NCBI GenBank assembly: GCA_963731265.1 | Contig: CAVSUE010000001.1 | Location: 1,248,001-1,312,000, forward strand | DNA: 64,000 bases | Direction of reading: 5' to 3' | Source: an uncultured Verrucomicrobiae bacterium | GTDB lineage: Bacteria > Chlamydiota > Chlamydiia > Chlamydiales > Rhabdochlamydiaceae | Shown: piece by piece, positions 55,741 to 57,323 of the stretch | Layout: each line of letters starts with the position of its first letter | How positions within the stretch are numbered: position 1 is the first letter of the stretch | Notes under the pieces: generated by a model | The model's database searches: none | Seen by the model: the letters and a program-made list of their open reading frames with translations, nothing else | Told to the model about the DNA's origin: nothing | Position numbers and translations under genes: made by a program

Positions 55741-57210
55741 ATGTTTTTTCACAAAATTCTTCCAATTATATATACCGGAAATGATTCAAAAGTTGGGAAT
55801 TTGGCAAGGCGGTTGCGCAAATTTTTTGTCTGGAGCAAGCGACCATTGTGCAAGCACAAGGCTCGAGATTCAGTCTCGGCATGTTTGCCGAGAAGCGACC
55901 CAACGGCTTGGCTCGCGTCTGATCTCGAGGTGAAGCGCGGCACAAGCTCGATGCAGCCAGCTGCAAAGATGAGGATGTCGACGAAACCAGTGGCCAATTT
56001 TTGGATCACGATGGGTATACTTTGCTCATCTTCTTTCTTACATGCCGACTTGAACACAGACGTTGCCGCGCTCACAGCTGGGCATACCGAATTTGCCTTT
56101 TCCCTTTATCCCACCCTGGATACCGGCGATACTAACCTCGTGTTTTCCCCTTATTCGATCTCCACGTGCCTTTCTATGGTTTATCTGGGCGCAAGGGGAG
56201 AGACCCAATCGCAGATGCAGTCCGGGCTTCACATGAAGGTCGACAGAAAAAATCTCCCCAAAACGGCTTTCGCGCTCAATCAATCTTTGCTGCCCCAAAA
56301 AAACAGCGAAAAGACTTACAAGCTGAATATGGCAAACGCTGTTTGGGTCGACCAGGGAACTTTCCTGTTGACCGACTTCAGATATTCCATCGAACAGCAA
56401 TTCAAAGCAAAACTGGGAACCCTAAATTTTGACGCCGCGCCGGAAAAAGCGCTGGAATCGATCAACGTGTGGGTATCTCAGCAGACTCAAGGCAAAATTC
56501 CACGCCTCCTCAATGGCGACGATATCAACAAAATGACGCGCCTGGTCCTTACGAATGCCGTGTTCTTTCAGGGAAATTGGATTTCTCCTTTCGATCCCAA
56601 GGAAACCTACGAAGCTCCTTTTTATTCTAAACCGGAAGAAAGCGTGCCAACAATGATGATGCACAAGACACATTCTGTTCCGTATTTTGAGAATGAACTT
56701 CTTCAGGCTGTCGCTCTACCCTTTGCCGGAACCTCAAATGAGGGAGGCCAATTGGCGTTTTTTGCTCTACTTCCCAAATCCTCGGATAATTTTTCGGCAA
56801 TGCTCAGCGAGCTTGACGGATCGTTTAGTGAATGGGTTTCCTCTTTGTCCCCAGCACACGTAGAACTCACACTTCCCAAATTCACTTTTTCCAGCCGCTT
56901 CGATTTAAACAAACCTCTGCAGGATTTAGGAATAGACGATGCCTTCGATTCCAATGCGAATTTCACAGGCATAGATGGGATGCGCGATCTCTTTTTAAAC
57001 AAAGTCGTCTCTTTAACCTATTTCGCTTTAGATGAAATTGGAGTGACAGCCGCTGCAGCCACCAGTGGTGGTATGAATGTCACTTTTGTTCCTGAAAAAC
57101 CGCCAATCCCCTTCGATGCGGATCATCCCTTCCTCTTTTTCATCATCGATTTAAAGTCGAAAGAAGTATTATTCATGGGAAAAGTGGTCCAACCTGAAGA
57201 AAATGTATGA
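55741..57210 (+). CDS. Serpin with an in-frame repeat insertion in its signal peptide (start uncertain)
   Basis: VFSPYSI, NAVFFQGNW, LPKF, hinge DEIGVTAAAAT, ADHPFLF. Confidence 0.92.
   Translation: MFFHKILPIIYTGNDSKVGNLARRLRKFFVWSKRPLCKHKARDSVSACLPRSDPTAWLASDLEVKRGTSSMQPAAKMRMSTKPVANFWITMGILCSSSFLHADLNTDVAALTAGHTEFAFSLYPTLDTGDTNLVFSPYSISTCLSMVYLGARGETQSQMQSGLHMKVDRKNLPKTAFALNQSLLPQKNSEKTYKLNMANAVWVDQGTFLLTDFRYSIEQQFKAKLGTLNFDAAPEKALESINVWVSQQTQGKIPRLLNGDDINKMTRLVLTNAVFFQGNWISPFDPKETYEAPFYSKPEESVPTMMMHKTHSVPYFENELLQAVALPFAGTSNEGGQLAFFALLPKSSDNFSAMLSELDGSFSEWVSSLSPAHVELTLPKFTFSSRFDLNKPLQDLGIDDAFDSNANFTGIDGMRDLFLNKVVSLTYFALDEIGVTAAAATSGGMNVTFVPEKPPIPFDADHPFLFFIIDLKSKEVLFMGKVVQPEENV
55771..56019 (-). 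mobile_element. Family C element, long form, in frame in the serpin
   Basis: tataccggaaatgattcaaaa ... tttttggatcacgatgggtata; 249 bp (83 codons). Confidence 0.88.
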
Positions 57211-57211
57211 A

Positions 57212-57323
57212 CCCAGCCTTAAGGTCTGGGATTAAGTTGGAGCCGAGCTTCGTACTTGGCTCAACATTGTTTTTGAAAATACCCGGGCCTGAAGGGCCGG
57301 GTTTCCGCCGGAGGACGGATGAA
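57212..57323 (+). mobile_element. Family A element, basic 112-bp form
   Basis: ATGAA|cccagccttaaggtctggg…gagccgagcttcgtacttggctc…cccgggcctgaagggccggg…ggaggacggATGAA. Confidence 0.9.

Follow-up and report, generated by a model that had tools for sequence, protein, structure and literature searches.

We describe a short repeat, here called family A, in a 64-kb stretch of chlamydial DNA (64,000 nt, positions 1,248,001 to 1,312,000 of contig CAVSUE010000001.1 in assembly GCA_963731265.1; hereafter the window) and in related genomes. Family A is probably a non-autonomous mobile element of Rhabdochlamydiaceae-like chlamydiae that inserts 5' of a host ATNAA pentanucleotide without duplicating it, a reading to which we give a probability of about 0.6. 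The element would consist, from left to right, of GTGAA, hairpin 1, a variable middle hairpin, a T-run, hairpin 3 and TTTCCGCCGGAGGACGG. The evidence comes from a survey of copies in other genomes, from orthologous sites with and without a copy, from the bases at the two ends and from the position of copies relative to genes.

A public collection of species-representative genomes was scanned for exact matches to a 21-nt core pattern taken from the right arm of the element. At least 95 stretches (loci, cited by L numbers) matched, and all but one were chlamydia-like: among the matches listed, one is a chance match in a Gemmatimonadota metagenome-assembled genome (MAG; L076) and all others come from 11 assemblies, labelled Rhabdochlamydiaceae, Candidatus Rhabdochlamydia, Chlamydiae or, probably loosely, Verrucomicrobia(e). 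The Verrucomicrobia/Verrucomicrobiae labels of several of these carrier assemblies look too coarse or wrong. The best coding matches of the window in the carrier assemblies have 76-83% identity, and the window's own genome is not among them. After removal of overlaps 100 copies were analysed, 96 from the loci and four from the window. Identical element cores occur nine, seven, six and six times within single genomes (three MAGs); between genomes the sequence of the middle hairpin differs while its pairing is kept. The element is 112-123 bp long, and the distance from the left pentanucleotide to the ATG (112 and 121 nt vs 114 nt) is not consistently a multiple of three. A blastn search with one window copy (copy D) against a plasmid collection gave no match. 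We found no prior description of family A in the open literature (subscription journals were outside our coverage), and a term search of the text of two Rhabdochlamydia genome papers (PMC9723776 and PMC6490308) returned no mention of such a repeat.

Mobility, junctions and start codons

Orthologous pairs were sought by tblastn of 47 proteins that start at an element against the DNA of the loci and the window. At seven orthologous sites one genome has the element (filled site) and the other lacks it (empty site): L012/L020; L023 (copy at 311)/L066; L033/window 38704 (menA); L039/window 22464 (tmk); L052/window 58271 (a class-V aminotransferase gene beside that of a PP2C phosphatase); window menG/L069; and a hypothetical gene of the window/L030. 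The existence of filled and empty orthologous sites indicates that the element is mobile and is not a conserved leader. Two more sites (L079/L080 and L023/L059) are filled in both genomes, each with the subfamily of its own genome. All seven empty sites have the same protein N-terminus and a single ATG; several are ATGA or TAATG stop/start overlaps, and several have no obvious Shine-Dalgarno (SD) sequence. The empty site in the menG ortholog of L069 reads ATGAAACGA. As for the junctions, one end deviates from xTGAA in 37 copies, and in none of the 37 is the deviation shared by the other end; the flanking pentanucleotides are therefore not a target-site duplication.

An ATG or GTG stands at the right end in 77 out of 100 copies, and in 46 of these 77 (46/100 overall) it opens an open reading frame (ORF) of at least 80 codons (39 out of 62 for ATGAA, four out of six for ATGAC, two out of three for ATGAT and one out of two for GTGAA). 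Other ATGAA sites in the same DNA, mostly internal Met-Lys codons, served as a control: a frame as long as this follows 336 out of 1729 of them (Fisher p = 5e-14). In 13 more of the 100 copies an ORF of 100 or more codons starts within 120 nt; 41 copies have no ORF downstream, of which ∼10 are in loci with 300-nt flanks and cannot be judged. On the other side, 24 out of 83 copies with a recognisable left end have an ORF of 80 or more codons upstream that ends in or on the left pentanucleotide, as do 18 out of 39 direct-start copies with a known left end. These counts indicate that the element often separates two genes of the same direction, whose stop and start would overlap if it were absent. 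All copies have GGAGGA 3 nt before the ATG (GGAGG 4 nt before), by construction of the search pattern. The genes with an element at their start have no function in common (RecN, Tmk, an IscS-like enzyme, MenG, PP2C and others).

A first-pass annotation of the window had proposed a mobile element that is non-autonomous, has a hairpin near each end and has a fixed pentanucleotide at junctions that lack a target duplication; it had also proposed that the element is tied to start codons, uncouples overlapping genes and gives several genes one and the same structured leader with its SD sequence. The figures above bear this out, together with the hairpins, which are predicted in 24 out of 24 aligned copies, and with the left end, which reads RTGAA in 69 out of 78 copies. 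The same annotation had named a 4-5 bp target duplication as the alternative, which the absence of shared deviations rejects.

Which end is host sequence

Two polarities have to be weighed. In the preferred one, which a comparison of the aligned copies makes the probable one, GTGAA belongs to the element as its own end, and the host target is ATNAA; insertion would then be just 5' of the start codon, and the element would donate the SD sequence and the upstream TGA, not the ATG. For the genes concerned the practical result would be as the first-pass annotation had described it. The other polarity, which the first-pass annotation had assumed, has the element inserting 3' of a host RTGAA (the old start) while its own right end supplies a new ATGAA, so that the start codon is element-derived. 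We consider it unlikely, although every locus is formally compatible with it because the two ends are nearly identical; ATGAA is found at both ends in nine out of 78 copies, and hairpin 1 directly abuts the left pentanucleotide.

The two ends differ in how constant they are. The left pentanucleotide is GTGAA in 60, ATGAA in nine and something else in nine out of 78 copies, with nothing conserved further upstream; its first base (position -5) is G in 63 and A in 12. At the right end (n = 100), GGACG-G is followed by A in 98 copies and by T in all 100, then by G in 77 (A in 11, C in seven, T in five), by A in 97 and finally by A in 87 (C in eight, T in three, G in two). The last four bases are thus TGAA at 70 out of 78 left ends and 64 out of 100 right ends, i.e. 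a deviation of 8/78 vs 36/100 (Fisher p = 9e-5): insertion after a host RTGAA would make the host side constant and the element side variable. Where the variable position of the right end is A, C or T, a long open frame follows in two out of 23 copies (in one of these the real ATG comes 6 nt later, and in the other the frame runs past the end of the locus). Since the T is present in 100/100 copies but the G varies, random knock-out of an unwanted ATG is an unlikely source of this variation (∼3e-6 under a simple model in which T is hit as often as G).

At two loci the letters of the right end match the host. L022 reads ATGATC (Met-Ile) at RecN; 112 out of 120 RecN homologues have the standard N-terminus, with residue 2 being I in 90, L in 22 and K or N in none, and a Val start in seven out of 112. 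L023 reads ATGACA, and its 84%-identical empty ortholog reads ATGTCA. A host RTGAA would need a former GTG start in 63 out of 78 copies, whereas the empty orthologous sites start with ATG in 7/7 cases and with GTG in 0/7; at RecN it would imply an ancestral Val-Asn-Lys N-terminus, which none of the 112 relatives has. The observation that deleting the element restores GTG-AAA, which the first-pass annotation had offered as evidence, holds for any copy and carries no weight. In symmetric forms of the element (below) it is the ATNAA sides that vary, those with GTGAA being constant, in agreement with GTGAA being the element end. IS608 has a long linker on the left and a short one on the right. With ATNAA as target, the linkers of family A (17 nt towards the target, 5 nt at the opposite end) resemble this layout, and a target that abuts a hairpin without any linker does not match it.

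Structure and copies in the window

A consensus fold computed with RNAalifold from an alignment of 24 copies predicts three hairpins and a small stem around the SD sequence. Overall 97.6% of cells pair; hairpins 1 and 3 are predicted in all 24 copies with 96-99% of their cells paired. Changes on both sides occur at seven pairs (49 cells), and the covariation score is reached by none of 500 shuffles. The small SD stem does not vary, though most of it was fixed by the search pattern. The outer hairpins (CCCAGGCCTTAAGGCCTGGG and CCCGGCCCTTAAGGGCCGGG) are palindromes, so the element ends can also be read as an imperfect inverted repeat. In single-sequence folding, the 117 nt of copy D fold better than shuffles (z is -2.7 as RNA and -3.6 as DNA). 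Hairpin 2 is followed by a T-run, AACATTGTTTTT, with which it scores as a weak terminator.

The first-pass annotation had reported four copies of family A in the window. All are there with the sequences it gave, and they are the whole set: a repeat search and an nhmmer profile built from 24 relatives agree. Copy D has the simple form, ATGAA + 107-nt core + ATGAA (57207-57323), and runs in the order ATGAA, hairpin 1 CCCAGCCTTAAGGTCTGGG, ATTAAGTT, hairpin 2 GAGCCGAGCTTCGTACTTGGCTC, AACATTGTTTTTGAAAATA, hairpin 3 CCCGGGCCTGAAGGGCCGGG, TTTCCGCCGGAGGACGG, ATGAA. The copies and their parts are as follows (B is on the minus strand).

57207..57318, plus strand: copy D, the element proper in the preferred reading, from the left ATGAA (57207-57211) through GGAGGACGG; boundaries from the census of ends
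57212..57230, plus strand: hairpin 1 of copy D, CCCAGCCTTAAGGTCTGGG; helix 1, with a compensatory A-U to C-G change in seven sequences
57240..57262, plus strand: hairpin 2 (middle) of copy D, CTTCG-type loop; compensatory changes between genomes at five out of seven pairs
57282..57301, plus strand: hairpin 3 of copy D, CCCGGGCCTGAAGGGCCGGG; from sequence, RNAalifold and covariation
57304..57319, plus strand: predicted small stem TCCGCC/GGACGGA around the SD sequence GGAGGA (57310-57315)
57319..57323, plus strand: ATGAA, PP2C start (Met-Lys), most likely the host target pentanucleotide outside the element; from ORF, Pfam and the junction census
33271..33535, plus strand: copy C, GTGAA to GGACGG, with a nested foreign repeat at ∼33300-33452; from sequence and nhmmer
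33536..33540, plus strand: ATGAA, start of the UbiE/MenG methyltransferase; from ORF and Pfam
32456..32714, minus strand: copy B, GTGAA at 32714-32710, with a nested foreign repeat at 32539-32685; from sequence and nhmmer
32451..32455, minus strand: ATGAA, start of the 242-aa hypothetical protein; from ORF and Pfam
1..50, plus strand: copy A, right part only (cut by the window edge), with one G missing before ATGAA; from sequence and nhmmer
51..58, plus strand: ATGAA, then the real start ATG (56-58) of a 636-aa HEAT-repeat protein; from ORF and Pfam

Three of the four copies were said to supply the in-frame start of a gene and the fourth to place GAGGA 7 nt before one, and the ORF lists and Pfam agree. 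The right-end ATG opens a 324-aa PP2C phosphatase at copy D (57319-58293), a 242-aa UbiE/MenG methyltransferase at copy C (33536-34264) and a 242-aa hypothetical ORF at copy B (31727-32455, minus strand). Copy A is one G short, which puts its GAGGA 7 nt upstream of the HEAT-repeat protein start at 56. On the left side of copy D, the stop TGA (57208-57210) of a serpin gene (55726-57210) sits within the left ATGAA.

Copies B and C are longer than D because a second, unrelated repeat is nested in them after GGGATTAAG; the shared nesting point suggests that both descend from one composite copy. This second repeat family (∼150 bp, inverted ends AGAGGATGTCTACAA) is found at 32539-32685 and 33300-33452, where the right end is lost in copy C, and alone at 53839-53995.

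Derivatives of family A that appear to be hairpin-mediated are common among the aligned loci. Some copies have only the right module with GTGAA still in front (L013, L048 and L038), and others are fusions of hairpins 1 and 3 into a single hairpin (L030, L088 and L089). Two loci, L055 (5724-5775) and L090, have symmetric palindromes with hairpin 3 and an SD tail on each strand, ATNAA on both sides and divergent flanks. In L070 (∼1923) a solo hairpin 1 lies between GTGAA and TTCAC.

No Rfam family reached its gathering score anywhere in the window, and a tRNA scan of it found none. A match of copy D (57281-57331, minus strand; small stem and hairpin 3) to sot0042, the RNA of an IS1341-type transposon (19.3 bits, E 0.0036), was rejected as a GC-hairpin artefact: it is absent for the copy in L005, which gives equally good matches to unrelated families (SmY and an Enterococcus small RNA).

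Elsewhere the window has the content of an ordinary chlamydial chromosome (gyrBA, dnaA, yidC, a TLC ATP/ADP transporter, a DUF818 (CHLPS) protein, CesT and men genes). Tandem repeats with periods of 66 nt (3688-4439) and 120 nt (19440-20315) lie within leucine-rich repeat and WD40 proteins and are ordinary protein repeats. Another repeat of 70-85 nt, with 63-86% identity between copies (80-164, 8817-8886, 55940-56016, 57847-57931 and 61315-61387), lies within long ORFs in both orientations and recalls the in-frame palindromic elements of Rickettsia; among its locations are the HEAT protein's N-terminal part, the serpin ORF before its Pfam domain and the gap between the PP2C domain halves. A third, ∼100-nt repeat (55768-55867) is 94-96% identical to at least 10 loci of MAG MFD00008.bin.2.72 and is thus another high-copy repeat. 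It falls among codons 1-50 of the serpin ORF (494 aa), in which the Pfam domain begins only at residue 120; given this repeat-derived beginning and late domain, the real serpin start may lie further downstream.

Mode of spread, consequences and comparison with known systems

The mechanism that we favour would work as follows. The target would be host ATNAA, usually ATGAA, the commonest Met-Lys/Asn start context; on the other strand the insertion would be 3' of TTNAT, with the antisense order TTNAT (host), CCGTCCTCCGGCGGAAA, hairpin 3, a spacer with hairpin 2, hairpin 1 and TTCAC. As the GTGAA end mimics the target, the downstream ATG would stay untouched and the TGA would replace the overlapping TGA or TAA stop of the upstream gene. 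Insertion would also put a consensus GGAGG 4 nt before the ATG, behind a GC-rich leader of three hairpins. Copies landing elsewhere in genes would presumably be lost, leaving those at gene starts and at intergenic ATNAA sites. Mobilisation in trans may be due to a single-strand HUH (Y1) transposase of the IS200/IS605 kind or of the kind associated with repetitive extragenic palindromes (REP-associated tyrosine transposase, RAYT); for this choice of enzyme the odds are about even.

A transposase was sought in ∼0.5 Mb, i.e. the 64-kb window and ∼0.48 Mb of loci, and no tnpA (Y1)/tnpB partner bounded by the same ends was found there. Clusters of multi-copy ORFs in the loci, considered as a possible autonomous copy, proved to be read-through of the element itself and ABC transporters. 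A search for left ends far from right ends turned up L071 alone, which was likewise rejected, the long insertion between its ends being an unrelated insertion sequence (IS) in the loop of hairpin 3. That IS (1533-2995) has an ORF for a 382-aa transposase (1675-2823), its own inverted ends and CTTAAG on both sides, and sits in the CTTAAG loop. Foreign DNA lies within two other family-A copies: in L082 (∼27-340, minus strand) a ∼170-nt element with inverted ends ACCTGAGTTTTGGGTTCA is inserted at ATTATTA, and L050 has an insertion at ∼2777-3027.

Several points weigh against insertion 5' of a host ATNAA by a transposase or limit the evidence for it. Pfam searches of 15 + 43 proteins (50 window ORFs and eight locus ORFs) found no transposase, and a phmmer search with RayT of Escherichia coli K-12 against 3387 ORF fragments from the loci and the window found nothing at E <= 10. 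GC skew in the flanks, oriented to the element, is negative at 48 and positive at 26 loci (n = 74), and in the window the skew follows gene orientation, which confounds any replication-strand bias. In the closest filled/empty pair (L012/L020), whose proteins are 95% identical, there is a difference of ∼15 nt immediately upstream of the site. The survey required an exact 21-nt match, so decayed copies escape it and part of the constancy of the SD region follows from the pattern; starts were called from ORFs only, and 15 loci have flanks of at most 300 nt, so that some of the 41 copies scored as having no ORF cannot be judged. Finally, the polarity rests on statistics and two loci, 12 out of 78 left ends have A at -5, and no single locus can settle the host side as the ends are nearly alike.

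Spread by recombination or gene conversion between 5' regions, with no dedicated transposase and with the Neisseria REP2 repeat as a model, would explain the outcome of the transposase search; it could be driven by xTGAA microhomology or by template switching at perfect palindromes. Hairpin-mediated rearrangements do occur (the fused, symmetric, solo and right-module-only forms above), and the orthologous copies in L079 and L080 each carry their own genome's subfamily. We find this explanation improbable, as dozens of unrelated loci have the same precise junctions, the copies of one genome are identical to each other, and the pentanucleotide rule at both ends fits site-specific cleavage better. 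A cut-and-paste MITE (miniature inverted-repeat transposable element) with terminal inverted repeats (TIRs) and a 4-5 bp duplication of TGAA or ATGAA is suggested by flanking pentanucleotides that resemble a direct repeat (the last four bases are identical in 41 out of 78 copies), but has very little chance of being right given that no deviation is shared and that the first base differs systematically, G on the left vs A on the right. Equally hard to credit is a vertically inherited cis-regulatory leader RNA of a regulon: the covariation-supported structure and the 5' leader position speak for it, but the seven filled/empty sites, the identical copies at unrelated genes, the 41 copies without an ORF downstream, the functional diversity of the genes served and the lack of any Rfam family at gathering score do not.

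If the element is indeed a transposon inserting at ATNAA, it would be harmless by design: one end mimics the target, the upstream stop and downstream start survive, and the last upstream codon changes only from A to G at its third base. A consensus scan found no sigma-70-like promoter within copies B, C and D, from which we infer that the element would be transcribed from upstream, as a 5' leader or an intercistronic spacer. Effects on expression may include uncoupling of overlapping genes, attenuation at hairpin 2 and masking of the SD sequence by the small stem. Coupled overlapping gene pairs would be converted into separated genes with a strong SD sequence, dozens of times per genome, which would be a natural experiment on translational coupling. 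The perfect CTTAAG palindromes are in turn landing sites for other mobile elements (L071, L082 and window copies B and C), and family A so shapes the plasticity of these symbiont genomes.

Gene annotation is affected as well, as a gene caller can run through the element, which is an open frame in some subfamilies. A deposited RecN (P0001; L022, 1374-2999, minus strand) has 572 aa, compared with 542 aa in relatives; its 30 extra residues, MAIWEGVRTPPKCRFLKYPALKGRVSAGGR, are the element read as protein and are an annotation artefact, because the gene caller read through the repeat. Homologues of the RecN of MFD00008.bin.2.72 carry Rhabdochlamydiaceae, Chlamydiota, Parachlamydiales and Verrucomicrobia labels.

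A bolder proposal, which we advance tentatively and think unlikely as a whole, is that a single-strand transposon targeting the start-codon context ATGAA acts as a mobile translation-initiation cassette, which splits stop/start pairs harmlessly and has been co-opted as the shared, SD-masking leader of dozens of genes. If true, this would be a post-transcriptional regulon built by a transposon in Rhabdochlamydiaceae, tied for example to the chlamydial developmental cycle.

Among known systems, the architecture of family A, as judged from its sequence, fits an IS200/IS605-type or REP-like non-autonomous element. IS200/IS605 elements are described as having no TIRs and a hairpin at each end, and as inserting without duplication 3' of a specific tetra- or pentanucleotide (PMC7290912). 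They move as single strands by 'peel and paste' with an HUH Y1 TnpA. Their non-autonomous derivatives, the palindrome-associated transposable elements (PATEs), share with family A the hairpins near both ends, the absence of a duplication, a fixed pentanucleotide at one end with a similar one at the other, the small size and the many copies. Unlike PATEs as described, family A has perfect palindromes, a start-codon context as its target and an SD sequence at its target-side end; a PATE or REP that targets a start-codon context was not found described in the open literature, where the papers that turned up deal with repeats in general. The first-pass annotation had called the element PATE-like, which stands as far as architecture goes; with no tnpA or tnpB partner found in the ∼0.5 Mb the assignment is unproven.

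REP sequences and their paired forms (REPINs), which are associated with RAYT, resemble family A in their GC-rich palindromes of ∼20 nt with a short conserved head, their high copy number and their extragenic location, and family A can be described as two head-tagged palindromes inverted around a spacer. It differs from REP in its head, which is GTGAA (60 out of 78 copies) and not GTAG/GTGG, and in the 17-nt SD-bearing tail beyond one palindrome. REP termini have been reported to supply stop codons to flanking ORFs (PMC3733652). From TIR-type MITEs (e.g. the Correia element) family A differs in lacking a short target-site duplication. Rickettsia palindromic elements (RPEs) are described as small repeats that obligate intracellular bacteria tolerate within or at coding regions (PMC3184786, PMC3733652); RPEs lie inside genes and are translated, whereas family A precedes the start codon and has a length that is not always divisible by three.

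In function, family A comes closest to Neisseria REP2, in which many genes share one translation-initiation leader. Neisseria REP2 (23-26 copies) and the Borrelia IR-A/IR-B repeats are described as 120-150 bp long, without TIRs, with stem-loops and directly upstream of ORFs; they hold a promoter, a ribosome-binding site as well as an ATG, and their origin and spread are called an open question (PMC3184786). Compared by description and not by sequence, family A differs from REP2 in having no internal promoter that we could find, in an ATG that is probably host-derived and in junction rules that point to site-specific insertion. A repeat that carries a translation-initiation region is thus not new as an idea; family A is a clean, widespread and mechanistically informative case of it, and would provide a concrete insertion rule for leader repeats that bear a ribosome-binding site and abut an ATG, whose origin was left open for Neisseria REP2.

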